From: Actinomycetota bacterium
GTDB lineage: Bacteria > Actinomycetota > UBA4738 > HRBIN12
Assembly: GCA_046330185.1 (NCBI GenBank)
Contig: JAXLTF010000005.1
Span: forward strand, 96,360 to 160,359
DNA: 64,000 nucleotides
Direction: 5' to 3'
The position numbers and the translations under genes are program-made. The first letter of the stretch is position 1, and each line of letters opens with the position of its first letter. This document shows positions 267 through 29,735 of the stretch, piece by piece. Under the pieces are notes generated by a model that was not told the origin of the DNA, made no database searches, and worked only from the letters and a program-made list of their open reading frames with translations.

Positions 267-276
267 AAGTCCTCGC

Positions 277-4903: not shown

Positions 4904-5460
4904 CCGGGGAGCCTCGAGCGAAGGTCAGCTTCTACTCCGTCGGCGATCTCGTCGAGCCTGGGCACGACTTGCTCCAGCTCTTCGGACGAGAGCTCCCGCC
5001 GCTGGCCGCTGTCGATCCCCAGGTAGTCGTTGATCGCTCGGTTCATTAGGACGGTGACCGCACCGAGGTTGTTCGCCGCACCAGTTCCTCCGAGCGACGC
5101 AATCCTCTGGCCACCGATTCGCTGGCCCAGGGCATCGCAGATGCGGTTCGCAGCGGACTGTGTCTGCTCCCGGAGCCGCACTCGCATCTCCTGGCGATGA
5201 ACCTGCGGCTGGACTGGAAGGCGCATAGGCTCCTGCGGACCGGCTGACGCTCGCGCCGTAACAATCCGCCTGCGAAGCTCATCCCGGTCGAGCCCGAGAG
5301 CAACGAGATCGAGGCCCTGCTCTCGCATGACGGTCAGCGCGTTGTCGATCAGCGTGTCGTCGCTCGGATCAAGATACGGGTCCGAGATGAACCGATCGAT
5401 GATTTCGCGGGAGACGTTCATGTCCGGGTCGGAGCCGACGGCGCGTTTCACGTTCGCCAA
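4900..5460 (-). CDS. hypothetical protein (186 aa), co-oriented directly downstream of the helicase
   Basis: ORF with balanced composition; begins 7 nt after the helicase C-terminal ORF ends. Confidence 0.4.
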   Translation of the reverse strand: MANVKRAVGSDPDMNVSREIIDRFISDPYLDPSDDTLIDNALTVMREQGLDLVALGLDRDELRRRIVTARASAGPQEPMRLPVQPQVHRQEMRVRLREQTQSAANRICDALGQRIGGQRIASLGGTGAANNLGAVTVLMNRAINDYLGIDSGQRRELSSEELEQVVPRLDEIADGVEADLRSRLPG

Positions 5461-5466
5461 TCGGTG

Positions 5467-6747: not shown

Positions 6748-6949
6748 GCCTAACACGATACGCCGGGGCACCGACGCCAGCAGCAAACGGATCGTTGCTG
6801 CACTTCGTCCGCGTTCCCAAATCAGCCGATTCCGTTCCGAACGCCCCGGTCGCAAGCGTCTGACCTGGTCGAATGGGGTTGTCTGCAAGCCCCACTCCGG
6901 CGCGCCGGCGGCCGCCCGATGATAGCGGACGTCCTCTGGTCCCCCGTCC

Positions 6950-7423
6950 GTGGGACCATCAGCACGGATGCGCCGGATGCTCGCGCTCGTGATGCTCGCC
7001 TCGCTGGCGGCCTGCGGTGGAGATGAGCCGTCGACGCCGTCGACCGCGCCGGACCATATCGTCCGGTTCCCCGGAGCCGGGACCGCGCTCCACGTCCGCG
7101 TATCCGACTCGGATGCGGAGCGGGCGCAAGGCCTGATGGGTGTGAACGACCTCCCCTCCGACGAGGGCATGGCGTTCGTGTGGGAGGAGCCGGTCGAGAG
7201 CACCTTCTGGATGAAGGACACCCCGATCCCCTTGTCGATCGCGTTCGTTGGCGCCGATGACCGGATCGTGACGATCGCGGAGATGGCGCCGTGCCGATCG
7301 GACCCGTGCCCGACGTACGCGGCGGACGCGCCGTTCGTGCTGGCGATCGAGGCGAACCGGGGCTTCTACGCCGACGCCGGCATCGGTGAGGGCGATCGGG
7401 CGCTCCTGGAGACGGCCTCGTGA
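6950..7423 (+). CDS. DUF192 domain lipoprotein
   Basis: Signal plus lipobox MLASLAACGG; DUF192-like blocks RAQGLMG, GMAFVWEE, FWMKDTPIPLSIAFV, PC..DPCPTY, FVLAIEANRG. Confidence 0.65.
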   Translation: MGPSARMRRMLALVMLASLAACGGDEPSTPSTAPDHIVRFPGAGTALHVRVSDSDAERAQGLMGVNDLPSDEGMAFVWEEPVESTFWMKDTPIPLSIAFVGADDRIVTIAEMAPCRSDPCPTYAADAPFVLAIEANRGFYADAGIGEGDRALLETAS

Positions 7424-7734
7424 CCGAGGCCTGCCTGCTCTGCTCGGCCGAGAGGTTGACCGACTGGCTGCACGAGGACGACGACTGCTGGGTCGCCGAG
7501 TGCGTCGTGTGCCGCACCCCGATGGTGGTATGGCGGACCCACGGGCTCCCGGACGCCGAGCTCGAGGCCAGCCTGGTGGCGCACCTGGAGCGGATCGCGG
7601 CCGAGCGGTACGGCGACGGGGGGTACTACGTCGACCCCGAACGACGCCGCATCCCGGACCACTGGCACGCGCACGCCAGGCCGGCCGGGGGGTTCTTCGA
7701 CCCGGCGAGCGACCTGTACGGGCGGTACGGCTAG
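7420..7734 (+). CDS. small HIT-like (histidine-triad-like) protein
   Basis: 104 aa; N-terminal CLLC and C..C pairs as in zinc-binding HIT proteins; C-terminal DHWHAHARP matches the H-phi-H-phi-H triad; start overlaps the previous stop (ATGA). Confidence 0.35.
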   Translation: MTEACLLCSAERLTDWLHEDDDCWVAECVVCRTPMVVWRTHGLPDAELEASLVAHLERIAAERYGDGGYYVDPERRRIPDHWHAHARPAGGFFDPASDLYGRYG

Positions 7735-8129: not shown

Positions 8130-9260
8130 CGAGAGACGCCGACCTCCCTGCCGTCGTGATCAGCGCCGGCCAAGCCGGCCTGGCGACGAGCCACGAGCTC
8201 TCCGCCGCCGGGGTCGATCACGTGGTGCTGGAACGCGACCGGGTGGGCTCATCCTGGGGCCGGCCTGTGGGACAGCTTCCGGATCAACACGCCGAACTGG
8301 CCCATCCGGCTGCCGGGCGCCACCCGACGACGACGAACCCGACGGCTTCCTGAGCCGGGCGGAGATCGTCGATCACCTCGAGCGGTACGTCGCGCGGTGA
8401 TGCCGAGGTCCGCCGAGGCGTGGATGTCTCTTCCTGGAGCCCGCTCGCGACGGGTTCGTCCTGGACTTCTCCGACGGACCGCTGAGGACCCGGGCGGTCG
8501 CCGTCTGCACCGGCGCGTACCAAGCGGCCTACATGCCACTGGCGCCGATGCTCTCCGCGGCTGGACCTCCCGGTGCTCGACACGCGCGCCTACCGGAACC
8601 CGATCCCTGCCCGACGGAAGGGTGCTGATCATCGGGAGCGGGCAGTCCGGCCCCCAGATCGCCGAGGACCTGGTCGGCGCCGGCCGCGACGTGATCGTGT
8701 CGTGCGGCAAGGCCCCGTGGGGCCCTCGACGGATCCGGGACCAGGACGTCGTGTGGTGGGCGATCGAGACGGGGTTCCTCGCTCAGACGGCGGCGGAGCT
8801 CCCATCTCCGGTCGCGCGTCTGACCGCGAACATCACCGCGAGCGGCGTCGACGGCGGCCTCGACCTCCATCTGCGGACGCCTGGGACCAGTGTCGCGCTC
8901 GCGGGCCACCTCGTCGCGGTGGATGGGACCCGGGTGCGCTTCGCGGACGATCATGCAGGAGAGCGTCGCCTGGGGCGACGCCCGGTACCTGGATCTCCGC
9001 AGGGACGTGATCGCGCTCTGTGACGGGCGGCGGCTCCCGGTGCCGCCCTGCCGTTCGACGATCAAGGGTTCCCCCGGCAAGTCAACGGTGCCAGCAGCAC
9101 GGCGCCTGGTCTGCTCTTCGTCGGCACGCACTTCCTCCGCAAGCGTCAGTCCTCGCTGCTCTACGGCGTCGGGGAGACGCGGCGATCGTGGCACGCGGGG
9201 TCGCCGGATCGGCCCCGCGGGGGTGCATCGCGCCGGTCGAGGCGCAGCGCGGGGCCGCTC
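8130..9260 (+). pseudogene. flavin-containing monooxygenase (CzcO/ArsO-like NAD(P)/FAD oxidoreductase) disrupted by multiple frameshifts
   Basis: Family motifs are spread over all three + frames: [28 protein letters not shown]; [19 protein letters not shown]; [17 protein letters not shown]; AVCTGAYQAAYMPLAP; VLIIGSGQSGPQIAEDLVGAGRDVIVS; GLLFVGTHFLRKRQSSLLYGVGE; GVGRDAAIVARGVAG. Confidence 0.6.
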
Positions 9261-10556
9261 GGCCCCGACGCCGCGCCGCCGCGGACCTTGCCGGCGACCG
9301 GGAGCGCTCCAAGATCACGACCGCCGTCCTTTCATGCGGACGCCTGGCGTACCCGTCCAGGCGTTCCGGGTCTCGCGCCAACGCTGCCACAACCGCTCGC
9401 GCTCCCCCACTTCGCGGCTCGGCCGAGAACCTCGCGCCGCACCCCGCCGGCGAGCTCCACGCACGCCGCCGGGTTGGCCTGCAGGTTCAGCCACCAGGCA
9501 GGCTCCGCGCGCCCCAGCTGCCATCGCCATCGAGACCAGGTTCGGTCCGTCCTCGTAGTAGCCCACGATCACGCTACGCGGCTCACCGCTGCGCTGACCG
9601 GTCGTCGTGAGTCGCAAGGCCCCACTCCTGCCCTGGACGTAGGTGTCACAGGCCCCTGCGTGTCCCTTGGTCGCCCGCACGAGCCTCCGGTGGACGCCAG
9701 AACGACACCATGAACCACCGCGGCGGCAGGCGACCCTTGCCCGTGTCTCTCACCGTGGTCGCATCCCTCATCTCGCTCACCTCGTTCCACCTCACCGAGA
9801 TCGTTCCATGGCTGGCCCGCTCGCCCCAGGGTCTCCTGTCCCACCCGGCCCGGGTCACCCGGGCATCCCACGTCGGTTCACCGCGGGATCGAGCCCGCCT
9901 CCGCCCGGGCGCCGCTCACGATCCGGAAGGCGATCGGTTCGGGCGCGACGGGACCCTGATCGAACGTCTCTGCGCCCGAGAGCCCTCCTCCCCTCCCGCA
10001 CGTGTCTCGGGAGGATGACCTCACGCGCACTTCATGTTATGGTTCGTGCATGAAGTGTTACTTCAGTCGGGGCTCGGATGGATCGAGCCGAGGCCACCTG
10101 GGAGGTGGACGCATGCATGGGATGACGGCCCAGGCGTATCGGTGGGGCTACGGCCGCTTCGGCGGACGGAGCGAACGGCCCGTCGCGGGACGCCCGCGGC
10201 TCCGGCCCGCCGCCGGTCGAACGAGCGCCCGCCCGTGATCTCGGGGGCGGGATCGATGGTCCCGGATCTCGGAGTTGCTCGCGGTCGGGCGCTCCGGCCC
10301 GCTGGGTGGTCGGGGACCCCGAGCTGAGTGGTCGCACGAGTGGGGGTGGAGGATCAGATGGCGAAGTTCGAAGGAAGGGTAGGGCCCGGCGGCGCGGCAC
10401 GGTATCGGACGCCGTCGCCTCGTGGCGACCGGCCCGCTCATGGCGACCGGCGGCCGCCGATGCCCGCGTTCCCCGCATCGCCCCGGCAGGCGCTCCGACG
10501 CTGCCGGCCATCAAGCCGAAGGCTGCCTGAGCGCGGGTTCCGCGGCCCGACGTGGA

Positions 10557-18497: not shown

Positions 18498-19016
18498 GTG
18501 ATGATGCGAGAGACATTGACCGCCGATGCAGCAACCTCGCCGGGCCTCGAGACCCTCTACCTGCACCACGCGCCGAGCGCCCTGCGGTTCGCCTACTTCC
18601 TGACCGGCGACCAGGACGCGGCCAGGGACCTCGTCCAGGACGCGTTCGTGAGGGTCGCCGGCCGTTTCAGGTACCTGCGGCAGCCCAGCGGGTTCGACGC
18701 CTATCTGCGCCGCACGATCGTGAACCTCAACGCCTCCCGGCTGCGGCGGCTCAAGGTGGAGCGGTCGTCCCTGGCCCGTGAGGCCGCCTACCCAGTGGTG
18801 GCCGATCCAGAACATGACCCGGGGGCGAGCGACGAGCTCTGGCAGGCGATCCTCGATCTTCCCCCACGACAGCGGGCGGCGGTCGTCCTTCGCTACTACG
18901 AAGACCTGAGCGAGCCGCAGGCTGCCGACATCCTCCGTTGTTCGGTCAAGGCCCTGAACCAGCTCGTGGTGAGGGCGATGAAGACCCTCCGTACGCGGCT
19001 CGGAGAGGACGGATGA
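18498..19016 (+). CDS. ECF-type RNA polymerase sigma-70 family sigma factor
   Basis: Region 2 DLVQDAFVRV; region 4 LPPRQRAAVVLRYYEDLSEPQAADILRCSVKALNQLVVRAMKTL. Confidence 0.85.
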   Translation: MMMRETLTADAATSPGLETLYLHHAPSALRFAYFLTGDQDAARDLVQDAFVRVAGRFRYLRQPSGFDAYLRRTIVNLNASRLRRLKVERSSLAREAAYPVVADPEHDPGASDELWQAILDLPPRQRAAVVLRYYEDLSEPQAADILRCSVKALNQLVVRAMKTLRTRLGEDG

Positions 19017-20170
19017 TGAACGATCTCGAGGCACGGATCCGCGACGCGTTCCGCGGCCGCGAGGGTGACGCGCCAGCGTTCGACCTCGCAGACGCACCCC
19101 AGATCGCACGTCGGACGCGGCGTCGCCAGATGCTGAACACAGCCGGCGCGGGGATCGGAGCCCTCGTCGTCGTGGTCGCGCTTACAGCCGGGCTCGGCCG
19201 GTTGACGCGCGCCGACGGGACCCCTGCGGATCAGTCCCCGCCTGTGGTGGTGTCCGGCGCGCTGGCCTACGGCCTCGATGGAGACATCTACGTCGCCGAC
19301 CCGGACGGGACGAACCCGGTCAGGATCACCGACGTCGCCGCCCTGGACGACGACGAGTGCCCGGGCGAGCTCCGATACGAGCTCCCGTCGTGGTCGCCGG
19401 ATGGGCGGTACCTCGCCTTCCGGGGGCCTCAGGGTCCGGCGTGCTCGAGTCCCACCGGTGTCGTGATCACCGACCCGCAGGGCAACGTCGTCGCGACGTT
19501 CCCGGGGCAAACCCAGATCAACCTGATGGCCCCGGTGTGGTCGCCCGGTTCCACCCGCGTCGCGGTCTGGGACGTCTACCCGGGCACGATCGGTGTCTAC
19601 CGGATCGACGGCACCCGCGAGACGCAGATCGCGATGCCGAGACAGGGCGACATCGGCAGACTGGCCTGGATGCCGGACGGCTCCTCGCTGCTCGTGGATC
19701 AGTACGAGGTGCCCCTCGACGGCGGTACCCCGCGGGAGCTCCCGTTCCCGTTCACGGAGTTCAACTCCTGGCCCCAGCAATATTCGCCCAACGGATCCCT
19801 GGTCGCGTACGCCAACCCCCACGAGCTGATGGTCGCGCGTCCCGACGGGTCCGGGACCCGTGCGGTGTTCGGACCCTTCGGACCATACACCTGGACGTGG
19901 TCCCCGAACGGCGAGCTGATCGCGCTCAGCGCGAACCCCGCCAACCCATGGCCCCCGAACGAACTGCACGTCGTCGATGTGGCGACCGGGTCGGTTACCC
20001 AGGTGTTCGAAGGCGAGCGGCGGGCGATCCTCTGGGTCATCGGGTTCTCACCGGATGGTGACCGCGTCCTGTTCACCAGCAGCCGCTCGGGGCTGTGGAG
20101 CGTCGGGGTCGACGGCTCCGACGCCCACCAGGTCGCGGGCTCGGCTGACGGGACCTGGCGCCCGATCTAG
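19013..20170 (+). CDS. membrane-anchored TolB-like (PD40) beta-propeller protein, putative anti-sigma factor
   Basis: Start ATGATG overlaps the sigma-factor stop; short cytoplasmic N-terminus, TM AGAGIGALVVVVALTAGLG, then repeated WSPDG/WSPGS/WMPDG/YSPNG/WSPNG/FSPDG PD40 blades. Confidence 0.6.
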   Translation: MMNDLEARIRDAFRGREGDAPAFDLADAPQIARRTRRRQMLNTAGAGIGALVVVVALTAGLGRLTRADGTPADQSPPVVVSGALAYGLDGDIYVADPDGTNPVRITDVAALDDDECPGELRYELPSWSPDGRYLAFRGPQGPACSSPTGVVITDPQGNVVATFPGQTQINLMAPVWSPGSTRVAVWDVYPGTIGVYRIDGTRETQIAMPRQGDIGRLAWMPDGSSLLVDQYEVPLDGGTPRELPFPFTEFNSWPQQYSPNGSLVAYANPHELMVARPDGSGTRAVFGPFGPYTWTWSPNGELIALSANPANPWPPNELHVVDVATGSVTQVFEGERRAILWVIGFSPDGDRVLFTSSRSGLWSVGVDGSDAHQVAGSADGTWRPI

Positions 20171-20183
20171 GGAGGTACTCGAG

Positions 20184-21116
20184 ATGGTGACGGATCAGCG
20201 GCGGAAGATCGGGGGGGTCGTGGTGGTCGCGGCGCTCGTCGTCGCGGGCGCGTCTGCCTGCTCCGGGGCGGGCGGGGACAGGACGACCGACGTCGGCGGC
20301 GGCTCGAGCCAGACGCCGACCTCGACCGGAGCGGAGGCGACACCCACCTTCTCGTCGAGCTACATCGGCTACCTCAACCTGACGACCGGCGAGATCTCGA
20401 CGACCGAGATCCTCCCGCACAACTCGGCGATCGACGTGTCGCCCGACGGGGATCGGATCGCGTACGCGGCCGACGGTATCGTGAGCATCGCCGACCTCGA
20501 CGGCTCGAACGGCCAGGTCCTCGAGGGAACCCGCGGTGACCCAACCGGACCCCAATGGTCACCGGACGGATCCAGCATCGTCTTCCAGGACGGCGGCAAC
20601 CTCTACGTCGTGGACGTGGGTTCCGGCAAGGTCCGCCCGATCACCGAACTCGAGGGCGTGGACACGGCGGCGCTGTCCTACCTGTCGCCGACGTTCGATC
20701 CGAGCGGCGACACGGTCGTGTTCAACATGCCGACCACCGTGGGAGGGGATCGTTACGCGCTGTGGTCCGTGGCGGTGATCGACGGTGAGCCCTGGCTCGT
20801 CGGTGAGCCCACGCTCGTGCGGAAGGCGGCGACCTTCGGCGACGTCTCGCCCGACGGGACCCAGATCGCCTTCGTCGAGGACGGAGGATTCGGCGACCTC
20901 TTCGTGGCGCCGACGGCCGGCGGGAAGGCGCAGAAGCTGGCGACCGGAGAGATCGTCGTGCCGCGGTGGTCCCCGGATGGGACCCGGATCGCGTTCAACG
21001 ACGGGTCAGGTGGCGTCTACGTCGTGGACGTGAGGACCGGGGAACGGACCCTGGTCGTCGAGAGCGACCACCTGCCGGCCTGGGTCGATGACGACACGTT
21101 GAGCCTGTCGCCGTAG
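20184..21116 (+). CDS. TolB-like (PD40) beta-propeller lipoprotein
   Basis: Start from internal Met with GGGAGG ribosome-binding site; lipobox VVAGASACSG; VSPDGDRIAY, WSPDGSSIVF, VSPDGTQIAF, WSPDGTRIAF repeats. Confidence 0.7.
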   Translation: MVTDQRRKIGGVVVVAALVVAGASACSGAGGDRTTDVGGGSSQTPTSTGAEATPTFSSSYIGYLNLTTGEISTTEILPHNSAIDVSPDGDRIAYAADGIVSIADLDGSNGQVLEGTRGDPTGPQWSPDGSSIVFQDGGNLYVVDVGSGKVRPITELEGVDTAALSYLSPTFDPSGDTVVFNMPTTVGGDRYALWSVAVIDGEPWLVGEPTLVRKAATFGDVSPDGTQIAFVEDGGFGDLFVAPTAGGKAQKLATGEIVVPRWSPDGTRIAFNDGSGGVYVVDVRTGERTLVVESDHLPAWVDDDTLSLSP

Positions 21117-21194
21117 TCCTGATCGTTGACACCATCGCCCGAGGGTCGCCTGGAGGTGGTCCATGGCTGGTGATGTCGGGCGCCTCAGTGTTGA

Positions 21195-21245
21195 GACGTG
21201 GTCGGTCGGTGGTTGGTTGGGGGTGGTCGGTCGGTCGGTGGGGTG
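21195..21245. repeat. G/T-rich low-complexity (GGTCGGT)n-like repeat tract at the left edge of the island
   Basis: gtggtcggtcggtggttggttgggggtggtcggtcggtcggtggggtg. Confidence 0.4.
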
Positions 21246-21370
21246 TTCTCAGAACTCTCTGACCTCGCGGTTTGCGGCACTTCTGGAGGACCTCCCACAG
21301 GTTAAGAGGGGTACCTCCCACAGCAGCTCAGGGCGGAATTCGGTCAATCTTGCCTCACCTTGCGATTCGC

Positions 21371-22429
21371 TCAGTCCCATCGAGGCCACTCCTGACGACG
21401 CCTGACCGGACCCGCCGGCCGCAGTCGTTCCACCCGGTCGATGTGTGCCTGGCCTTCCTGCTGCTCCAATATGTGAATCGTCGGCGGGGCTGGCACCAGG
21501 CTAGCAACGCGGTGCTTCTGCTTCTTCGCCAAGGTTCTCACGCGCTGAACCGCGGCCACTGAGGGACCGTAGATCGCCCACTCGGCCGAGGCGTAGGTGC
21601 GAAGGTTGATCTCCTCGACGTCACCCTGATCAGCTTCAGCGTGACGAAGGTCAGGGGGACCGGGCGAAGCGACCAGTGCGCACGTGCGGTCGAGGGGGCA
21701 GGTCGCCACCGTCTCCGGGGAGGACAACCAGCCAGCCCCGTATCCAGGCGCCGCCTGCGGATCATGGATCAGGATCGGGTGATCGGAGACGACGAAGTCG
21801 AGATCCGACGGAGCGTGGAGGATCACCCAGCTCATCTGAGCTGCGATGCGCGGAACCACCCCCTCAGCGAACATGAACATCGCAGCGACCGCGTGGTCGT
21901 GGCTGGCCTTGAGGATGAGTTCTCCCGAGTCCAGATGGTTCGCCCAGACGCGCCCGCGACGCTCGGCTTCCTCGAGCGAGAGCTCCTCCCCCTGCAACCG
22001 ATGAAGCTCCTGCACCTCCCGCGGGTCGAGGAGCCGTCTCATCGCATCAAGCGTGTACGCCTGCTCGAAGGCGTACGTGAACCACTGTCGCCCTCGGGGT
22101 GTGCGGTGGTACTGGAGATAGAGGAACAGCGCCATGGCCATCCTCTGGGTCTGATCGAGTGCACGACCCTCCACGAGGTTCGCGACGACCGAGGCAGCTT
22201 CGTCCTCGACGAGAGCAAGGGTGTGCTCGGCGAACTCCTGTGGCACACCTTCCATCTCTCGCAGGTCGTTGTAACCAGCGATCGCCGCTTCCCCTCGGAC
22301 GCCCCGCACCGAGCATTTGCCCGTGCCCTTGTCGAGATGGTGCAGGCGCGGGTTCTCAGCATCGGGCTCGGCGGAGAAGCGGCGAAGAAGGAAGCGCGGA
22401 ACGAAATGGTGGAGCTTCGGCTTCGTCAT
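21371..22429 (-). CDS. DUF4238-family protein
   Basis: N-terminal hallmark MTKPKLHHFVPRFLLRRF (HHYVPqFyL-type motif of DUF4238); 352 aa. Confidence 0.6.
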   Translation of the reverse strand: MTKPKLHHFVPRFLLRRFSAEPDAENPRLHHLDKGTGKCSVRGVRGEAAIAGYNDLREMEGVPQEFAEHTLALVEDEAASVVANLVEGRALDQTQRMAMALFLYLQYHRTPRGRQWFTYAFEQAYTLDAMRRLLDPREVQELHRLQGEELSLEEAERRGRVWANHLDSGELILKASHDHAVAAMFMFAEGVVPRIAAQMSWVILHAPSDLDFVVSDHPILIHDPQAAPGYGAGWLSSPETVATCPLDRTCALVASPGPPDLRHAEADQGDVEEINLRTYASAEWAIYGPSVAAVQRVRTLAKKQKHRVASLVPAPPTIHILEQQEGQAHIDRVERLRPAGPVRRRQEWPRWD

Positions 22430-22480
22430 TCGCCGCCGCTCCGCTCGTTTCGGCTGGGCCAGCTGGAGTCCGAGCGTCCG

Positions 22481-22726
22481 CTAGTGCTCCTTGTCACGTG
22501 GAGGGTTCGGATCGTGGGCCGGCGGAATCGTGTCGGCACTCCGGATTCGGCCATCCCGGCCGTGTGTCAGGATCTCGCCCCCACCGCTCCCCCGTAGGAT
22601 CTCGCGGGCGCGCCGATCGGCTTCGGCCTGGGTTTCGCCTCTGGCGCTCGCACGGGATGCGCCCTCGCGCTGCGCTTTCCATCCTTCCCCATCCTTCGTC
22701 ACGTGGATCCGCTTTCGGTTCGTCAT
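22481..22726 (-). CDS. DUF2188-family small protein
   Basis: 81 aa; HVTKDGEGWKAQREGASRASARGETQAEADRRAREILRGSGGGEILTHGRDGRIRSADTIPPAHDPNPP follows the DUF2188 pattern; immediately upstream and co-oriented with the DUF4238 gene. Confidence 0.55.
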   Translation of the reverse strand: MTNRKRIHVTKDGEGWKAQREGASRASARGETQAEADRRAREILRGSGGGEILTHGRDGRIRSADTIPPAHDPNPPRDKEH

Positions 22727-22729
22727 TTG

Positions 22730-22898
22730 GATCCTCCTCGAACTGATGTTCGAGTATGAGCCTCAGCTCTTGCTCGCGTCAAGGGCGGACCAGGACAGTG
22801 GCAGTCCGTTAGACCTGTCAGGAGGTATTTAGTGGACTTTGGGTATCTGCTATCTTCTATCCGCGAACTCCCTCCACGGATGAACTAGAGGACTCTGG
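22730..22898. promoter_or_regulatory. AT-rich (about 50% GC) divergent promoter region between the DUF2188 gene and abiEi, with GGATG..CTAGAG direct repeats
   Basis: Marked GC drop relative to ~70% flanks; repeats GGATGAACTAGAG (22878-22890) and GGATGTCATCTAGAG (22897-22911), the second spanning the abiEi ATG. Confidence 0.4.
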
Positions 22899-23708
22899 AT
22901 GTCATCTAGAGCTGGGATCGGATCGAAGGGTCGAGCGGAGCTCGCGGCCGTGCTGGCCGGGGGCCGCCGGTTCGTCACGCCCTCCGACGTCGCGGAAGCG
23001 CTCAACATCGACCGCGACGACGCCACCAAGCGTCTCGCCCGATGGGCCACAGACGGATGGCTCAGACGAGCCCGTCGTGGTCTGTACATCCCGGTTCCCC
23101 TAGACGCCGAGAACCCGGCCACGTGGTCGGAGGATGCCCTCGTCGTCGCGGAGGCCATCTGGTCACCCTGCTACTTCACGGGATGGACCGCCGCCAACCA
23201 TTGGGCACTCACCGAGCAGGTGTTCCGGACGACCGTCTTGAAGACCGCGAACCGGGTGCGATCCAGTTCCACGACGGTCTTGGGACACGACTACCTCGTC
23301 CACCACGTCGATCCAGCAGTGATGGCCTGGGGGCTGAAGTCGCTGTGGAAGAGTGAACTGCGGCTGCGTGTCGCAGATCCTGCCCGAACGGTGATCGACA
23401 TCCTTGACGCACCAGGCCTGGCTGGCGGCATCCGTCATGCAGCTGAGATCCTACGGGCCTACCTCGACGATCACGATTCAGCGCTCCTGATCGAGTACGG
23501 AGAACGCCTCGGGAACAGGGCCACGTTCAAGCGCCTCGGGTATCTCGTTGAGACGTTGGACGACAACGACCGACTTGTATCCGAGTGTCTGGCCCGCATC
23601 TCCACGGGGATTTCGGTCTTGGACCCCGATGGCCCGAAGACCGGGCGGCGCGTGATGCGCTGGAACCTCCTCGTGAATGCGCAGCTGGAACCAGGTGACT
23701 CCTCGTGA
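22899..23708 (+). CDS. abiEi: AbiEi-family antitoxin / transcriptional regulator (type IV TA, COG5340-like)
   Basis: N-terminal wHTH (ELAAVLAGGRRFVTPSDVAEALNI...RRGLYIP) plus C-terminal AbiEi domain; directly followed by the AbiEii gene with a GTGA overlap. Confidence 0.8.
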   Translation: MSSRAGIGSKGRAELAAVLAGGRRFVTPSDVAEALNIDRDDATKRLARWATDGWLRRARRGLYIPVPLDAENPATWSEDALVVAEAIWSPCYFTGWTAANHWALTEQVFRTTVLKTANRVRSSSTTVLGHDYLVHHVDPAVMAWGLKSLWKSELRLRVADPARTVIDILDAPGLAGGIRHAAEILRAYLDDHDSALLIEYGERLGNRATFKRLGYLVETLDDNDRLVSECLARISTGISVLDPDGPKTGRRVMRWNLLVNAQLEPGDSS

Positions 23709-24883
23709 TCTCCGCCCGCGAGGTCTTGGACCTCCGAGCGGAGTGGTCACTCGCAGTCGATGTCATCGAGAAGGACTACATGCTCGGGTGGCTGCTCGCC
23801 GGCATCGCCCAGGAACCGCAGCTGCGTGAGGCGTGGGTGTTCAAGGGCGGCACGTGTCTACGTAAGTGCTACTACGAGACGTACCGGTTCTCAGAGGACC
23901 TCGACTTCACGGTGCGAGCCGGTGGCCCCGAGACTCCCGAGGAACTTAAGCCACTCTTCGTGGGTATCGCGGCGTGGCTCGAGGAGGAGGCGGGAATCGA
24001 ACTCGTGGTCGAAGGCTCCTCCTTCAGACGACGCCGGAATCGGAGGGGGAACGAGACGACTCTTGGGCGCCTTGCGTACCGAGGGCCTAACCGCCCTCCG
24101 CAGCTCCCGAAGGTGAAGCTCGATATCACCTCAGACGAACGCCTGGTCCAGGAGACTGTCAGCCGTCAGATCGGACATCACTACAGTGACGCGCCGCTCC
24201 CCATCGAAGAGGTCGCCTGCTACTCGCTCGTGGAGTTGTTCGCCGAGAAGCTGAGGGCGCTTCAAGAGCGGTGTCGACCACGTGACTTGTACGACGTCGT
24301 GCACATGCACCGGCATCCCGATCTCGCCGGTGAGGCGCCAGCGGTTGCCACGGTACTGGCAGAGAAGTGCGCGTTCGTGGGCATCGACGTCCCCACTGCC
24401 GAGTCCATCCGCTCATCTCCCTACCGAGATGAGATCGAGACGGAGTGGGAGAACATGCTGGGGCATCAGCTCCCGAGACCCTTGCCTCCGTTCTCTGACT
24501 TCTGGGATGTCCTTGACGATGTCTTCGGCTGGCTCACGGGTACGGGTGCGCGCACCGTGCCGGCTCGGATCGAGAGGGAGGACCTGGATCCCACCTGGGT
24601 CGCTCCCAAAGCCATCTCCTCTTGGCGAGCTGGGTTCCCTCTGGAACTCATCCGCTACGCGGGAGCGAACCGACTCAAGGTGGACTTGGACTACCGCGCC
24701 GAGGACGGACGGTGGGGCGTCCGCCGGGTGGAGCCATACTCCCTCAGACGCACGAAGGATGGATACCTGCTGCTGTTCGTGGTGAATGATCGGGGGCAGA
24801 TTCGCGGCTACCGAGTCGATCGCATAGCCGGGGCTCAGGTGACGGGAGAGCGGTTCACCCCTCGCTACTTCGTCGAGTTCTAG
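23705..24883 (+). CDS. abiEii: AbiEii/AbiGii-family nucleotidyltransferase toxin (DUF1814) with a ~100-aa WYL-like C-terminal extension
   Basis: Hallmark FKGGTCLRKCYYETYRFSEDLDF; 392 aa versus ~290 typical; C-terminus EPYSLRRTKDGYLLLFVVNDRGQIRGYRVDRIAGAQVTGERF resembles a WYL ligand-sensing domain. Confidence 0.8.
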   Translation: MISAREVLDLRAEWSLAVDVIEKDYMLGWLLAGIAQEPQLREAWVFKGGTCLRKCYYETYRFSEDLDFTVRAGGPETPEELKPLFVGIAAWLEEEAGIELVVEGSSFRRRRNRRGNETTLGRLAYRGPNRPPQLPKVKLDITSDERLVQETVSRQIGHHYSDAPLPIEEVACYSLVELFAEKLRALQERCRPRDLYDVVHMHRHPDLAGEAPAVATVLAEKCAFVGIDVPTAESIRSSPYRDEIETEWENMLGHQLPRPLPPFSDFWDVLDDVFGWLTGTGARTVPARIEREDLDPTWVAPKAISSWRAGFPLELIRYAGANRLKVDLDYRAEDGRWGVRRVEPYSLRRTKDGYLLLFVVNDRGQIRGYRVDRIAGAQVTGERFTPRYFVEF

Positions 24884-24996
24884 ACTAACGACTCCCCGAT
24901 GGGAGCAGTCCCCTGGGCACCAAGCGCACCTTCACCACCTTTCCCTACCGCACCGAGTTCCCGGACTCCTCAGAGCGAGGGCGGAACTCGAAGACG

Positions 24997-25899
24997 TTGG
25001 AGGATGCCCTGTGGTGGGCAAGATGGCAGGTCCAGTCAAGGTGGCGCGAGACCAACGAGTTCGGGCGTGCCGGCGAGTACGCCAACGACTCGGAGATCGC
25101 GGTCATCACGAACCGGAACACCAGTTACCGCTGGATCGTGCGCCGGGGGGACCACCGCGTCGAGTTCCAGACCCCAGAGATGCTCGAGGGTACCGTGGCG
25201 GATCAGAGCGTTGAGCTCCATCTCACCGTCGAGGAGGTGGAGGCGCTGGCGCGCGCAACCGTAGATGCCAAACCCAAGGACCGTCGGCAGAAGGCGCTCG
25301 TCGAGCAGGCGCTCGACCAGATCGCCGTCGTGTGTCGGCAGGTCCGAGCGCGCGTCGAGGCGGGCGACGAGCTGATCGACTCCTGGACCCGAGCGATCCC
25401 GAGGAGGCCGCCAGACGAACCGCCATCCCCGGAGCCCGAGCAACCGGAGGAGCCTGCCCGCGAACGCCCTCGGTACCGACCGCTCGGTGATCCCGACAAC
25501 CTGTCGCTGAAGGAAGCCGGCGAGATCCTCGGACGCAAGCGCAACACGGTCTACCTGTGGTTCAAGCAAGGGAAGTTCCCGCCCGCGGTCGACGTCGCGT
25601 CACACCTCGGGAGGGGCACCAAGCCGGTCATCGTGGTTCCCCGCTATCGACTCGAGGCGTGGCAGGCGGGTGAGCGGATGCCTCCGATCCTGCAGGAGGT
25701 CTTCGAGACCCGCGGACTCCTGGAGGCACCGTGGGCGTGCTTCGTGACACGCCGGAGAGCGCGTCGCGAAGACATCGAGTTCTGGGTGGATCGCCGCGGC
25801 CTGAAGCTTGCTGCCTCCACGACCGGACGGAAGATCTTCGGCACTGACCTAGAAGAAGGAAGGGTCTACGAGTTGAGAGAGCTACTGGAGAGCGGATGA
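24997..25899 (+). CDS. hypothetical protein with a C-terminal-half HTH motif
   Basis: 300 aa; LSLKEAGEILGRKRNTVYLWFKQGKFP HTH-like segment; acidic/Pro-rich linker. Confidence 0.4.
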   Translation: MEDALWWARWQVQSRWRETNEFGRAGEYANDSEIAVITNRNTSYRWIVRRGDHRVEFQTPEMLEGTVADQSVELHLTVEEVEALARATVDAKPKDRRQKALVEQALDQIAVVCRQVRARVEAGDELIDSWTRAIPRRPPDEPPSPEPEQPEEPARERPRYRPLGDPDNLSLKEAGEILGRKRNTVYLWFKQGKFPPAVDVASHLGRGTKPVIVVPRYRLEAWQAGERMPPILQEVFETRGLLEAPWACFVTRRRARREDIEFWVDRRGLKLAASTTGRKIFGTDLEEGRVYELRELLESG

Positions 25900-25900
25900 A

Positions 25901-26560
25901 TCAGGTTGTCTGCGCCACGATCGTGTTCTCTGGCGGAACCTTCCAGTAGGCGAACTTCCGAAGCTCGATCCGCCGCTCCCAGGAAGGGGAAGTCACGAGG
26001 AAGGTCGCGACGCCGGCGGGTGCCCGCTGCAACCGGTCCAGGTCGGTCTGTAGCTTCTTATTGCCGTCGTGGGCAGAAACGACATCACTCACCTCGAACC
26101 AGGCCTCGCCCTTGTCGCCATCGGTTCGGAGGTCTGAGGGACCTGGAACACCGCTGGTCGTAGGATTGCACTCGAGCACGCGGCTCGCCCAGCCGTTCTC
26201 GATCGCCCATCCGAGCGCGTCGAGGAGTCGTTCGACCGTGGCGCAGATGTTCAACAACTCCATTATCGGATGCTGCTCGCTGGCAACCAGCGGATGAAGG
26301 TTGGATAGGTCCACCGGAGTTCGCTTCCCTTGGATGCCCCAAGCGGGCCCGGCCACGTCATGCGTCCAGCTGATCGCTCGATCGACGATCGCGTCGTGAG
26401 CACCCTGAAGCTGGACCAAGTACTGTCCCGCCTCCAGAGGCCCGTCTTCCGCCATTAGCGGCTTGATCAGGTGCTTCTGAGTCGCCATTCCTTCGATACC
26501 TCCCTGCTCGGCTGTGCCGCCAACCGTCGCTCCAAGGTCCACCTGCGCAACAGGCTCCAT
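25901..26560 (-). CDS. hypothetical protein (219 aa)
   Basis: ORF with balanced composition, directly downstream of the EEP gene on the same strand. Confidence 0.4.
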   Translation of the reverse strand: MEPVAQVDLGATVGGTAEQGGIEGMATQKHLIKPLMAEDGPLEAGQYLVQLQGAHDAIVDRAISWTHDVAGPAWGIQGKRTPVDLSNLHPLVASEQHPIMELLNICATVERLLDALGWAIENGWASRVLECNPTTSGVPGPSDLRTDGDKGEAWFEVSDVVSAHDGNKKLQTDLDRLQRAPAGVATFLVTSPSWERRIELRKFAYWKVPPENTIVAQTT

Positions 26561-26582
26561 CGTCGGCTAGCGACCCAACACT

Positions 26583-27404
26583 TCAGATGTTGAACTCGGC
26601 CACGATCGGAGCGTGGTCGCTGGGTGAGTTCTCGTCTAGCGGCTCAGCCGAACAACGAGTCAGCAGGTCAGCAAGTCCCTCCGAGGCGAACAGGTAGTCG
26701 TCCTGGTATGGGATGGTCGGTCGCCGCTTGTCATAGAAGGTTCTCGTGTGGGTGCAGTCGGGACCCTTGCCACACCGACAGTTGTCCATCTCCTTGCGGC
26801 GGACAGGGTCGTCGTAACGGTCGGCTGGAAGCTTGGCCTTGAGGCAGTCGACCAGACCAAAGTCCTCGAGACCCGTCAGCACGCCGTGGCTGCTGTTGGG
26901 AGGAGACCCCGCGAGGATGTTCCAGTCTCCCCCGAGCAGAACATGCTTCCCGTACTCCGCGTGCTCGAGGATCGGCATGACTTCAGATATCGCCTTCTCC
27001 GTTGATTGCCAGTAGGTCGGATACGCCTCGTCCGTCAGGCCATACAGCGCGATGCTGGTCACGGGGATCCCGCCAAGATCAACGCGGCACGCAACCCAGG
27101 TTCCGGCTCGCACTTCGGGCTCGAAGGGAAGTGGCTCGAATTCGACTCCACGAGGAGCGGCAACAGCCGTGGAGAACTGCCGGCCGGGGTAGTCGCACTT
27201 GCCTGGACCACACTGGCAACCCGTCTCTTTGCTGCTGCCGTTCATCTCGACCATCAAGGAGTCCTCGATGTGCTTGGGAGCGGGAACGGCTTCGCACAAC
27301 AGGTAGAGGCCGGCATTCGCGATAGGACCCCAGTTCAGTAGGCGGTCCCAGTTTTCAGGACCGGTCTGACTCTGCATGTTCCAGACGACCACGTTGGCTG
27401 CCAA
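26583..27404 (-). CDS. endonuclease/exonuclease/phosphatase (EEP) family protein
   Basis: 273 aa; GGDWN metal-binding block and C-terminal SDHAPIVAEFNI (SDHxPV EEP catalytic His motif). Confidence 0.65.
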   Translation of the reverse strand: MAANVVVWNMQSQTGPENWDRLLNWGPIANAGLYLLCEAVPAPKHIEDSLMVEMNGSSKETGCQCGPGKCDYPGRQFSTAVAAPRGVEFEPLPFEPEVRAGTWVACRVDLGGIPVTSIALYGLTDEAYPTYWQSTEKAISEVMPILEHAEYGKHVLLGGDWNILAGSPPNSSHGVLTGLEDFGLVDCLKAKLPADRYDDPVRRKEMDNCRCGKGPDCTHTRTFYDKRRPTIPYQDDYLFASEGLADLLTRCSAEPLDENSPSDHAPIVAEFNI

Positions 27405-27932
27405 AGTGGTCAGAGTATGAACGGCCCGGGAGGTCGTGATTAGAAGCGTCAGCCTTCTTGTCGGAACGTCACGCGCCCCACCCCGAGCTCAACGGTCTCG
27501 ACGCTCCAGCCTGCACGAAGCCAGCTGCGCGCCTGAACATGAGTCTCGTCGTTGGCCCACCAGGCCCGGTGGTTCCGGGCCGATCCCGGGAGCCCGCCGA
27601 CGATCTCCGCTACCTCGACGAAGCTAACCGTCAGGGTGTCACTAGATCGACCGCGTAGGTACTGAGTTAGCGGAGCGTACTTCCCTCCCCCGGCAGCATC
27701 GGAGCGACGCTGTGACGGACGGGGCTTCGGCTCCTGGCGTCGGCCCGACGCGTAGAACGCCTGCTGCTCGAACAGCCCGAGTCCTTCAGCAGGACGAACG
27801 ACCTCGGCGTCGGCAGCGACGAGCCCATCAACGAGCCCGAAGTCGGGTAGCTCGACCCGGCGTGTGCCTCGAACGTGAACCCATCGAGCTCGCCGAGCCG
27901 CTCACGGAGCGCCTCGAGCACGTGGGCACTCC

Positions 27933-28502
27933 ATGCGCGCCGCTCGCGGGCGCTCGGGCACCACCCGCTGGAAGTGTCCGTTCCACGCTGGACTCCTCCG
28001 CTCCCGCCAGCTTCCGTTCACGATGCGCCGTTCCAGACACGCGCCGCTGGTGGAGTTGCTCGAGGGGGCCAAGTGCTGCGAGGGCACGATCAGCGTCAAC
28101 GCGGCGGACCTTCCGTTCCGCCAGAAGCTCGTACCCGGCACGACGGCCTGGCGCAAGTCCTATCGGCGCCGCAACACCGTCGAAGGCGTGAACGGCATGC
28201 TGAAAGGCGGCTTCGTCAACATCCAGGAGAAGTTCTTCAGGGTCTTTGGGCTCACGAAGCTGACGTTCCTGCTGACCTTCACCATCGCCGGCTACAACGT
28301 CGCGTGCATCCGCTCGTTCAAGGCCCGCACCGCCGCAGATGCTGAGGCGAGAGACGCCAAGAAGAAGCATCGCGCCACGCGCCGCAAGGGCACGTACACG
28401 GACCTCCTCGGCGGAGGAGCGGAGGGACCAGTTCCGGATCCTCCGCCAGATCTGAGGCCAGTCACGACACGCGAACAACATCGAAGGGCGTCATCAGCAT
28501 GA
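27933..28502 (+). mobile_element. IS4/IS5-superfamily DDE transposase C-terminal fragment (IS remnant)
   Basis: YRRRNTVEGVNGMLK matches the Y(2)R(3)E(6)K IS4-type signature; no intact N-terminal DDE region or inverted repeats found; upstream frames are degenerate. Confidence 0.5.
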
Positions 28503-28660
28503 CCTGATGACGCCCTTCGCGTGCATCTCGCGCTGCGGAGACGCCGATCGCCAGTTCTGCTCGTTGATGCGGCCGCACGACACCACGTCGATGGCGCACG
28601 TGACCCTCAGTCGATGAGTTCTGAGTTGTCGGGGGCCTTAGTCTTGAGAACACCCCTCGG

Positions 28661-28742
28661 TGGGAGGAGGAGGATTCGAACCTCCGTAGGCTACGCCGGC
28701 GATTTTACAGACCGCTCCCTTTGGCCACTCGGGCATCCTCCC
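28661..28742 (-). tRNA. tRNA-Tyr (anticodon GTA), type II with long variable arm
   Basis: Minus strand: GGGAGGA TG CCCGAGTGGCCAAAGGGA GCGGT CTGTAAA ATCGC CGGCGTAGCCTAC GGAGG TTCGAAT CCTCC TCCTCCC A; 7-bp acceptor stem, GTA anticodon, TTCGAAT T-loop. Confidence 0.8.
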
Positions 28743-28802
28743 GGGGACCACATAGTACGAGCCGCCCGCGGACGCGCCTGGAGGCTCGCCGATCGCCATC
28801 TC

Positions 28803-29624
28803 TCACGTGATGGCGATCGTGTCGTCACCCGTCGCGAGCTGGATGGCCTCGCTGAACCCGTCGGTCGCACCCCGTTGGAAGTAGCGAACCGCCGCCGGAC
28901 CAGGTCCGAACGCGATGTTGCTCTCGGGCTGCAGCTCGACGGACCAGGCCGGAGCGGCGCCGGGGTCGCAGGACAAGCCACCGGACAGGTAGACGCGCGC
29001 GATGAACATGCCGTCGCGGAGCTGCCGGACGGCCGCCTCCAGGTAGACGATGGAGCGCTCGGAACAGCTCATGGTCCCCGTCACGGTGATGTCACCGCTG
29101 AGAGGGTCCGTGCGGCCGCCCGTGATCTCGATCGACGCCTTCAACGGCTCCGCGTTGACACGCTCGACGTGCAGGACGAGATGTCCACCGATCCCGTCGA
29201 CCCCCGAGCCGCAGCACGCCGACACCATGATCGTGTAGGCGACACCCGCCTGCCCTCGGAAGCGAACCCCCGCATCCAGCCCGAACCGGTCGTCGTTGCA
29301 CTCCAGGATCTCGGGCGGGCGCCGGCCCGCGAGGAAGACGGTCAACACCGTGTCGTACCCGCTCCCGACGGTATCGACCTGATAGCGGCCGCCCGTGGTC
29401 GGCTCGAGCCGGAAGAAGACCGATGCGTTGTTCCCGCATCCGCGAGGGCCGTCCGCGGTCGCGTCGGTCGTGTCCTGTTCGTGCACGAACGGGAGACCCG
29501 TCACCGAGATCGCGCCCGCTTCGCTGTCGTTCGTGGGCGTCGCCGCCGATGCGACGGATCCACCGAGCAACGCCGACGCACAGGCGACGACCAGCGCCGA
29601 GCCGAACCGGAACGATGTGCGCAT
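28803..29624 (-). CDS. secreted hypothetical protein
   Basis: From internal Met: signal peptide MRTSFRFGSALVVACASALLGGSVASA; Cys-rich, Gly-rich mature part. Confidence 0.45.
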   Translation of the reverse strand: MRTSFRFGSALVVACASALLGGSVASAATPTNDSEAGAISVTGLPFVHEQDTTDATADGPRGCGNNASVFFRLEPTTGGRYQVDTVGSGYDTVLTVFLAGRRPPEILECNDDRFGLDAGVRFRGQAGVAYTIMVSACCGSGVDGIGGHLVLHVERVNAEPLKASIEITGGRTDPLSGDITVTGTMSCSERSIVYLEAAVRQLRDGMFIARVYLSGGLSCDPGAAPAWSVELQPESNIAFGPGPAAVRYFQRGATDGFSEAIQLATGDDTIAIT

Positions 29625-29735
29625 CGTCAACCCTCCCTGCTGCGGCGGGCCCGGCTCCATGCCTCCTGGTCATCCAAGACCCGATCCCGTCGGCCGTCAA
29701 GCGCCGGCGTCGGCGCCGGCGCTAGAATCCGCCGC

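Follow-up and report, generated by a model that had tools for sequence, protein, structure and literature searches.

A tRNA-Tyr island with a discrete element

In the 64,000-nt stretch of an Actinomycetota genome analysed here, called the window and used as the coordinate system for all positions given without a locus label, a region of lowered GC content (21120-28742) reaches from the end of a PD40 lipoprotein gene up to and including an intact tRNA-Tyr gene, and it contains a discrete element of ~7.4 kb, spanning 21240-28656, in which seven genes and the remnant of a transposase are enclosed by two conserved ends (Table 1). This element is probably a non-autonomous, cargo-carrying derivative of an apparently undescribed transposon-like family whose members home to the 3' end of tRNA-Tyr, and in function it would be a mobile insertion cassette.

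The region has a GC content of 0.640 against 0.691 for the remainder of the window, and among all windows of 7.6 kb only positions 1-7600 fall below it; the drop is genuine yet modest, amounting to about 5 points. The lower GC reported in a preliminary description of this DNA is likewise seen at third codon positions (GC3), where the genes of the island have values of 0.73-0.81 against 0.85-0.97 for the flanking core genes, most of the cargo lying at 0.73-0.77 and both the transposase remnant and the helix-turn-helix (HTH) gene at 0.81. The interval 22730-22900, which had been given as about 50% GC, has 53% instead, but it is indeed the lowest 171-nt stretch of the window. Both ARAGORN and Rfam place the tRNA gene on the minus strand with its 3' end pointing into the island, as had been described, and the tRNA gene is preserved. 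Furthermore, Pfam and PADLOC recover the accessory genes that had been listed (a DUF2188-DUF4238 pair, abiEi/abiEii, an EEP nuclease and a transposase remnant), the EEP assignment being weak in itself and supported by homologues, and the window has no integrase or recombinase gene, in agreement with the earlier impression.

None of the cargo genes is found at the syntenic tRNA-Tyr/yajQ locus in 13 relatives, and the same content in syntenic position at uniform GC, named beforehand as the observation that would speak against an acquired island, is therefore not what the relatives have. The junction of the PD40 gene, the left end and the cargo is furthermore 100% identical in an independent assembly (L088). 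We can conclude that the island is horizontally acquired accessory DNA, derived from a mobile element and situated at the 3' end of tRNA-Tyr.

Table 1. Features of the element and its borders (window coordinates; LE, left end; RE, right end)
Feature	Position	Strand	Evidence or remark
RE relic of an older neighbouring element	21172-21196	+	nhmmer E=1.9e-4; positions 29-53 of the RE profile; terminal ACACCCC missing
(NNGT)n tetranucleotide array	21198-21239	+	GGTC/GGTT units; reverse complement of the (ACCN)n tRNA trailer in relatives without an RE there
Left pentamer, TCGGT	21235-21239	+	directly outside LE
LE, conserved, 125 nt	21240-21364	+	nhmmer E=1.3e-33; alignment of 9-11 left ends
Left terminal inverted repeat, 17 nt, GGGGTGTTCTCAGAACT	21240-21256	+	inside LE
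DUF4238 protein, 352 aa	21371-22429	-	Pfam PF14022 E=3.6e-34
DUF2188 protein, 81 aa	22481-22726	-	Pfam PF09954 E=1.8e-18; upstream partner of DUF4238
Divergent intergenic region, DUF2188(-)/abiEi(+)	22727-22898		GC minimum of the window, 52-53%
AbiEi antitoxin/regulator, 269 aa	22899-23708	+	Pfam AbiEi_4; PADLOC AbiEi E=4e-77
AbiEii nucleotidyltransferase toxin with C-terminal WYL, 392 aa	23705-24883	+	Pfam AbiEii E=4.8e-38 and WYL; PADLOC full length E=2.9e-135
300-aa protein, AlpA/excisionase-type HTH_17 (residues 169-225), otherwise orphan	24997-25899	+	Pfam
219-aa orphan, downstream of the EEP gene	25901-26560	-	no annotation match
EEP-superfamily metal-dependent hydrolase, 273 aa	26583-27404	-	own Pfam match below cutoff
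DDE transposase remnant, last ~175 aa of a ~543-566-aa protein	27915-28502	+	ORF (open reading frame) 27933-28502; tblastn; weak IS1182/DDE_Tnp_1_6
Hairpin, perfect 16-nt stem, spanning the transposase stop codon	28482-28519		kept in right ends of relatives
RE, conserved, 58 nt	28599-28656	+	nhmmer E=5.6e-16
Right terminal inverted repeat	28640-28656		15/17 to the left repeat
Right pentamer, TCGGT	28657-28661	+	ACCGA in tRNA sense: the three final nt of the tRNA and two beyond it
tRNA-Tyr(GTA), intact, homing site	28659-28742	-	ARAGORN; Rfam RF00005, 54 bits

Ends of the element

Apart from its terminal repeat the LE holds CTGACC and two ACC(T/C)CCCACAG motifs, at 21290-21300 and 21313-21323, around GGTTAAGAGGGGT, and it is these two motifs that had been noticed before as a duplicated ACCTCCCACAG. 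The RE carries a second, subterminal copy of AGTTCTGAG, and the stretch 28616-28656, directly 3' of the tRNA, matches the far edge of the island at 21240-21257 in inverted orientation. Profiles of the two ends match the 64-kb window at three places only, which are the LE, the RE and a partial RE relic, and with these profiles nhmmer finds no end relics between 21365 and 28598. A scan of positions 20900-29000 against Rfam matched the tRNA alone, so that the LE corresponds to no known RNA family, and a likeness of the terminal repeat (TTCTCAGAA) to the T-arm of a tRNA (TTCGAA) was rejected by eye, the positions relative to the pentamer not corresponding.

The pentamer identity across the element is exactly 5 nt and is lost at 4 or 6 nt. 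An 8-bp match of TCGGTGGG, reported previously, is present at 21235-21242 and 28657-28664 and consists of this pentamer plus GGG. The G/T-rich repeats that had been seen at the far edge are likewise present, as the tetranucleotide array listed in Table 1, which by its sequence appears to be the native tRNA trailer, displaced. Since the array is the reverse complement of the (ACCN)n run found in relatives, removing positions 21240-28661 in silico recreates a native-looking tRNA with an (ACCN)n trailer, just as these relatives have it. Immediately beyond the array lies the RE relic, and here a direct match of 20/23 exists between 21174-21196 and 28627-28649, which taken alone is not above window controls, its origin from an RE having been recognised via the profile.

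Relatives at the locus and arrays in metagenomes

Relatives, all of them uncultured Actinomycetota and labelled L with a number like the other loci below, were retrieved via yajQ beside the tRNA and comprise L001, with ~85% nucleotide identity, and about a dozen distant ones with ~75-78%. Between tRNA-Tyr and yajQ the distant relatives have 40-130 nt. The RE starts 2-3 nt past the tRNA in L002, L004, L006 and L011, and counting the further loci it abuts tRNA-Tyr in L082, L086, L087, L100, L158 and L167 as well, while it is found 15 nt downstream of the tRNA, inside a repeat array, in L008. Runs of (ACCN)n follow the tRNA in place of an RE in L003, L005 and L010, and such a run is succeeded by a truncated RE in L007. 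A motif scan furthermore located LEs, each preceded by (NNGT)n, in L001, L002, L004 (three copies), L005, L008 and L010. Alignments of these sequences define an LE of ~125 nt including both ACC(T/C)CCCACAG copies and an RE of ~45-60 nt, to which the conserved hairpin and the C-terminus of the transposase are joined, and family ends are altogether observed in L001-L011 and L082.

The elements of L004, L008, L010 and L082 contain mutually unrelated cargo and no intact transposase. In L004 three complete elements stand in tandem beside the tRNA, the first with LysE and AraC genes, the second with TfoX, an extracytoplasmic function (ECF) sigma factor and YCII, and the third with RidA and a sigma factor/SnoaL; the element of L008 has ADH, BTAD and DUF4386, that of L010 two rhodanese genes, and those of L082 SnoaL with a nucleotide-cyclase/AAA protein, and a MIP channel. 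The cargo of the window was not found in the other elements examined, be it in relatives or in metagenome contigs.

When the most conserved 20 nt of the LE were used as query in a metagenome scan, 74 contigs were obtained with 92 LEs and 25 REs, often in arrays of one orientation, and at the RE/LE junctions the two ends are 5-33 nt apart, the space being filled by NNNGT or (NNGT)n. The family is thus widespread and unannotated, with about 100 LE copies in soil metagenomes and with almost none of its proteins having a Pfam assignment, and it makes the tRNA-Tyr/yajQ locus a variable array of cassettes carrying restriction-modification, AbiE, DUF4238 and other cargo. Where the ends meet with a 5-nt spacer, the RE/5 nt/LE junction is a 17-5-17 palindrome. 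Over all loci the pentamers on the two sides are identical in 8 of 11 complete units, with six different sequences that every one end in GT, whereas in 10,000 permuted controls 1.6 units matched on average and 7 at most (P<1e-4). The LE of the window is 87% identical to its nearest foreign copy, with a median of 73%, and on these values LE similarity was rejected as a sign of recent transfer.

The GT-type arrays between elements (window 21198-21239 and the spacers of L090-L163) are of the kinds (GGTC)n, (GTTC)n and (GAGT)n, all with a period of 4 nt, and they are confined to genomes that have, or once had, these elements, the distant relatives L009 and L012-L014 having ordinary trailers. Might they be insertion scars enlarged by slippage? 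Upstream of the LEs of L115, L126, L135 and L147 there is a common compound junction, in which an RE relic, TCAGT, a solo terminal repeat (GGGGTGTTCTCAGGACC), a GT run and a full LE succeed each other, and this arrangement seems to indicate nested or aborted insertions at one spot. In L001, the closest relative at 85% identity, no tRNA-Tyr exists at the locus (8391-10000), which instead has an LE at 8604, a RibD_C-like fragment, a fragment of the 285-aa gene described below and yajQ; this suggests that a deletion took the RE and the tRNA, which would then be encoded elsewhere in the L001 genome.

The transposase and its partner genes

The IS4/IS5 transposase remnant that the preliminary description places next to the tRNA is no incidental insertion sequence (IS) but the truncated transposase of the element itself, placed beside its right end. 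The ORF aligns without gaps and with 72% identity to residues 371-543 of the 543-aa protein P0080, and only residues ~369-543, the C-terminal third, survive in the window copy. Both proteins have the motif Y-(2)-R-(3)-E-(6)-K (SYRRRNTVEGVNGMLK), and across the family its R, E and K show little or no variation, the Y position being variable. This YREK signature is a hallmark of IS4-type transposases, and IS4-related families with a degenerate YREK produce duplications of ~4-6 bp (PMC2266710). There are ~2000 relatives of the transposase, and by exhaustive profile search the full-length ones have 540-620 aa. Matches to Pfam DDE_Tnp_1/DDE_Tnp_1_6 are weak, that to DDE_Tnp_1_6 being under the gathering score, a sequence search of the PDB with the transposase profile found nothing, and a plasmid search with the fragment gave one weak match.

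The point of truncation lies at about residue 369 in the window and at 224, 338, 403, 409 and 470 elsewhere, and since it thus differs from element to element the mobility genes appear to have been lost through independent internal deletions. Full-length copies occur at the same site, with the RE 2-3 nt from tRNA-Tyr, in L083-L087, L086, L167 and L168; L081 was rejected as a further one, as it is truncated too and not located at tRNA-Tyr.

Upstream of the full-length transposase gene is a module encoding a protein of 143-155 aa, a PD-(D/E)XK protein (PF12705) of 236-237 aa and a protein of 306-334 aa, the gene of which abuts or overlaps that of the transposase, by 4 nt in L083-L087 and L169. 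The family of the 306-334-aa protein numbers at least 400 members, all unannotated, and the AlphaFold2 (AF2) model of this protein, with a mean confidence (pLDDT) of 91, has tyrosine recombinases for all of its best 50 matches in the PDB, among them Cre, XerH, XerA, lambda Int, Tn1549 Int and IntI. A PDB sequence search with the profile of this family gave nothing, the matches coming from the fold search alone, and we regard the modelled protein as having a Cre/Xer-type, two-domain tyrosine-recombinase fold. Both catalytic arginines are invariant in the family. The residue aligned to the nucleophile Tyr324 of Cre is Tyr in 17 of 34 members and Phe in 11, according to an alignment with Cre that is weak (E=0.08); in two of the three aligned intact modules this position is Phe. 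No rve, AAA+ or TniQ domains were found in the module proteins, and the window copy has no recombinase-fold gene.

In the distant genome L169 (10001-13167) a pair of recombinase-fold and DDE genes ends in a recognisable RE that abuts the 3' end of the transfer-messenger RNA (tmRNA) gene, with ACAGT as pentamer and smpB nearby, and the genes of the 143-155-aa and PD-(D/E)XK proteins are absent. Since the pair stands alone at tmRNA, the core of the family would be the recombinase-fold/DDE pair and its targets the 3' ends of tRNA-like genes, and the family's target seems from this arrangement to have switched between such genes.

Two further observations concern the surroundings of the module. 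Upstream of the 143-155-aa gene, L083 (~1560-1640) and L086 (1-125) contain two diverged copies of a region with a common promoter-like TTGACAGACA...TAGTCTTA box and a GC-rich hairpin (GGCCCCGGCGGCG...CGCCCCGGGGCC), which may be a putative regulatory region of the module. In L167 (2036-8287) the four-gene module of the full-length element at tRNA-Tyr has a complete Type I restriction-modification system (HsdR/S/M) directly upstream of it, one more defence cargo at this hotspot, and further upstream there are a HEPN-like gene and an integrase fragment.

Mode of insertion

The assignment to mobile insertion cassettes (MICs) follows from what such cassettes consist of. The ends of the window element are the terminal inverted repeats of its parent, given that the same LE precedes the transposase module in L108, at a distance of 2 kb and with two passenger genes between, and that the same RE follows the full-length transposases of L086, L087 and L167; the genes enclosed are passengers without a functional transposase; and TCGGT flanks the element on both sides, although a duplication made by a transposase and a crossover core would both fit this. 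The orientation is fixed, with the RE beside the tRNA. We infer that DDE transposition with a 5-bp target duplication is the most likely chemistry. In such a scheme the DDE transposase would make the insertion, the pentamer being the target-site duplication, and the recombinase-fold protein would serve as a DNA-binding partner, be it as selector for tRNA-like 3' ends, as end-binding or regulatory factor, or as resolvase where the tyrosine is kept. The mobility genes would then have been removed by internal deletion, leaving a cassette that would now be unable to move except where a full-length relative provides these proteins in trans. Precedents exist, since DDE transposons of the Tn7-like kind can home just downstream of tRNA genes via a dedicated DNA-binding selector (PMC9881144), and since transposase-less MIC derivatives are known as well as, in Tn4430, a resolvase (PMC7157771).

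Several points weigh against this interpretation. All complete units lie in or beside GT-type repeats or tRNA ends, and no duplication was seen at an unrelated target. The 4-nt period of the flanking repeat arrays is unaccounted for by a 5-bp duplication, and many arrayed LEs have no RE in front of them. A search of the 10 kb that precede the full-length copies of L087 and L167 found no LE, so that a complete autonomous element has not been seen end to end. NCBIfam IS1182 (NF033551) gives 17-33 bits for the window fragment and the full-length relatives against a cutoff of 270. The 17-5-17 palindrome also resembles the core site of a tyrosine recombinase, and half of the recombinase-fold proteins retain the tyrosine. 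Furthermore, the 3' ends of tRNA and tmRNA genes are classic integrase targets. Finally, transposase and RE have diverged between genomes about as much as core genes have (73% vs 77%), which allows for an ancient tRNA-proximal end and for an arrival of the 7.4 kb in more than one step.

Some of these points lead to an alternative in which a recombinase integrates a circular form, the Cre/Xer-fold protein being the acting enzyme, the RE/5 nt/LE junction an attP-like core with the pentamer as crossover, and the tRNA or tmRNA 3' end the attB site; the island would then be a decayed integrative element with a 5-bp core, closer to what was first described. We find this rather unlikely. In its favour are a complete tyrosine-recombinase fold of two domains in which neither catalytic arginine varies, the homing in fixed orientation to the 3' end of tRNA-Tyr or, in a distant branch, of tmRNA, the exact 5-nt RE/LE junctions in the arrays of L004, L092, L152 and L157, which are what tandem site-specific integration is expected to leave, and a pentamer that is no palindrome and has a constant AC when read in RNA sense. 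However, a nucleophile that is Tyr in only 17 of 34 proteins, and Phe in most aligned intact modules, is in poor agreement with such catalysis, as is the existence of a conserved, apparently intact DDE transposase with YREK that is always coupled to the recombinase-fold gene. The pentamer moreover varies between genomes and usually matches within an element, for which recombination needs overlap identity or tolerance whereas target duplication needs nothing special; some LEs (L091, L111, L123, L154) abut non-GT, apparently unrelated sequence, suggesting insertion that is not site-specific; and end-to-end spacers range from 5 to more than 30 nt.

A further alternative, which we hold to be less probable again, does without a single insertion: the transposase remnant, RE and tRNA junction would be an ancient anchor inherited vertically, next to which cassettes inserted later, with subsequent deletions joining a foreign LE and its cargo to the old transposase remnant, and the matching pentamers would reflect one pentamer shared throughout an array. 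The core-like divergence of transposase and RE and the different truncation point of every element are in agreement with this, and so are the occurrence of one pentamer at several junctions of an array in L004 and L082, the RE relic just outside the window LE, and the GC3 of the cargo, mostly under that of the transposase remnant. The split in composition is, however, not clean, as the HTH gene equals the remnant in GC3, and no internal end relics were detected in 21365-28598. Stepwise assembly is in any case compatible with the same family and the same enzymes, and alters the order of events rather than the identity of the element.

The preliminary description had proposed an old, decayed integrative element. 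Of this the acquisition of mobile-element-derived DNA with loss of its mobility genes stands, whereas a classical tRNA island, made by a lambda-type integrase with the tRNA 3' half as att core and later deprived of its integrase and distal att site, with the IS remnant unrelated, is very improbable. The position at a tRNA 3' end, the lower GC, the accessory cargo and the lack of an integrase would all suit it, but the search for att direct repeats that had been recommended, run with the tRNA and its flanks as query, yields no direct repeat in the island that reaches 10 nt, the tRNA 3' segment is not duplicated and of the 5 bp that are, only 3 nt belong to the tRNA. In addition, the island is bordered on both sides by conserved ends, with terminal inverted repeats, of a single element family, and the supposed IS remnant is part of the element, present at this position in more than 10 genomes. 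What looks like a decayed tRNA island lacking an integrase can be a transposon-type cassette with defined ends, the borders of which are then to be set by its terminal repeats and the 5-bp duplication and not by att repeats. That no discrete element exists at all, the island being a compositional fluctuation or an assembly chimera, has next to no probability: the GC drop is only ~5 points and positions 1-7200 are equally low, but the family profiles recognise both ends (at E=1e-33 and E=6e-16), the left junction is identical in an independent assembly and the cargo is absent from relatives.

Returning to the cassette of a DDE transposon, a more far-reaching proposal may be made, which is tentative and somewhat doubtful as a whole. 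The family could represent a new kind of homing transposon, in which an exapted integrase-fold protein, often without nucleophile, recognises tRNA-like 3' ends (in a tRNA-Tyr clade and a tmRNA clade) and delivers an IS4-type DDE transposase to a fixed position, and in which repeated homing to one pentamer builds head-to-tail arrays of exchangeable cassettes, that is, an integron-like, defence-rich platform for gene capture in uncultured Actinomycetota with the GT-type arrays as its scars. If it is true that an integrase-fold protein selects the target for a DDE transposase, this would be a new solution to the problem of homing to safe sites, beside TnsD/TniQ and CRISPR guides.

Comparison with known systems

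Transposon-end cassettes, transposons combining a tyrosine recombinase with a DDE transposase, and transposons homing to tRNA genes are each known separately. The combination seen here, namely an IS4/IS1182-like transposase with an often nucleophile-less Cre-fold protein, inserting 2-3 nt past tRNA-Tyr or tmRNA and forming head-to-tail, GT-spaced arrays, was not found in curated profile libraries or literature searches. The window's own copy is a decayed and ordinary-looking member of the family.

The elements of the Tn3 family have a 5-bp duplication and GGGG-initiated terminal repeats of ~38 bp. The window family has the 5-bp duplication and the GGGG start, with a shared repeat of only 17 nt, but its transposase, of ~550 aa (540-620) and IS4/IS1182-like with YREK, is unlike the ~1000-aa Tn3-type TnpA (DDE_Tnp_Tn3). 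Tn4430 and Tn5401, the members with TnpI, likewise have a tyrosine-recombinase gene that immediately precedes a DDE transposase gene in colinear arrangement, short motifs repeated near an end, and known toxin-antitoxin cargo and MIC derivatives (PMC7157771). They differ from the window family in that the recombinase nucleophile of the latter is half-conserved and in that it homes to tRNA-like genes and tolerates neighbours, with no sign of target immunity.

MICs such as MIC231 of IS231 and the Tn3-family MICs of Xanthomonas resemble the window element in that inverted repeats of a parent flank passengers without a functional transposase, mobilisation is presumed to occur in trans, and a short direct duplication is present (PMC2266710, PMC7157771). 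Here, however, the parent belongs to another, uncurated transposase group, a remnant of the transposase remains, insertion is site-specific at a tRNA 3' end, and tandem arrays with GT-type tetranucleotide spacers are formed.

Tn7-like elements, which reach attTn7 or tRNA genes via TnsD/TniQ, are alike in their fixed orientation just past a conserved gene (a tRNA), a 5-bp duplication, defence cargo and a separate, presumed DNA-binding selector (PMC9881144), and a PD-(D/E)XK nuclease gene is a further parallel, found in the tRNA-Tyr clade of the window family. This gene is nonetheless Cas4/RecB-like (PF12705) and missing in the tmRNA-targeting relative, the family lacks an rve-type TnsB, an AAA+ TnsC and TniQ, insertion occurs 2-3 nt past the tRNA and not ~29 nt, and the candidate selector has an integrase fold.

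Integrase islands at tRNA and tmRNA genes share the 3'-end target, the preserved RNA gene, the accessory and defence cargo, tandem occupancy and, in autonomous members, a recombinase-fold protein, whereas the window family duplicates no tRNA segment beyond 3 nt, has terminal inverted repeats, and has a DDE transposase that is always coupled to the recombinase-fold gene, in which the nucleophile is often absent. With the IS4/IS1182 superfamily it has in common the similarity to DDE_Tnp_1/DDE_Tnp_1_6, the Y-(2)-R-(3)-E-(6)-K motif, terminal inverted repeats and a short duplication; it is set apart by scores far under the IS1182 cutoff, by a translationally coupled recombinase-fold gene, by kilobases of cargo and by site-specific insertion.

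Cargo of the window element

The seven cargo genes were initially labelled as toxin/defence-type, which seems reasonable for four of them as judged by their domains but does not cover the other three. The abiEi and abiEii genes are adjacent with an overlap of 4 nt and by their content can be taken as an AbiE pair (type IV toxin-antitoxin/abortive infection). The DUF2188 protein matches the PADLOC candidate system PDC-S16 (E=3e-19); its DUF4238 partner matches no PDC-S16 model and has a weak match to PADLOC DUF4238-Pers (E=0.0024). A distant homologue of the latter, a DUF4238 gene from an Escherichia coli P2 hotspot, gave resistance to T7 (bioRxiv 10.1101/2021.01.21.427644). The EEP gene has 173 homologues, several of which pass PF03372. 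The 219-aa gene has no match in Pfam, PADLOC, NCBIfam or the plasmid search, and the plasmid search gave no homologue of the 300-aa HTH_17 gene either; the notion that these two form one module with the EEP gene was rejected, as they do not co-occur with EEP homologues. To its host the cassette would be a small defence island made up of AbiE, the DUF2188-DUF4238 candidate system and the EEP hydrolase, which has defence-island neighbours elsewhere. One EEP homologue, 65% identical, indeed lies in L164 (1-7709) between McrBC, DUF2130 and a distant AbiEi/AbiEii pair, a defence-island context.

Neighbouring sequence

A second low-GC stretch occupies positions 1-7221 of the window and is as low as the island (GC 0.61-0.65, GC3 0.72-0.80). 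It contains an ABC sugar-transporter operon (ATPase with TOBE, two permeases and a solute-binding protein), a gene for a 186-aa orphan and a helicase divided over two ORFs, Helicase_C at 5467-6117 and ResIII at 6145-7221. Homology between L001 and the window starts only at ~6905, and the stretch may be another acquired block.

On the other side of the island, a gene on the minus strand between tRNA-Tyr and yajQ (28803-29660) encodes a secreted-looking protein of 285 aa with no Pfam match. As a synteny probe this protein found no relatives in the genome collection, and exact look-ups of it and of P0001 returned no record. At its spot the distant relatives have 40-130 nt only, L167 has another gene, of 180 aa, and L001 a partial homologue; as the content between tRNA and yajQ thus differs, the 5' side of the tRNA is a variable spot as well.

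Just left of the island, at 18938-21116, two tandem PD40 β-propeller lipoprotein paralogues precede the RE relic. PD40-like genes, as well as copies of the N-terminus of the gene at 18938 with 70-76% identity, are found as cargo just inside LEs in the metagenome contigs L099, L107, L110 and L128, and the PD40 genes of the window may be an older, decayed cassette of the same array.

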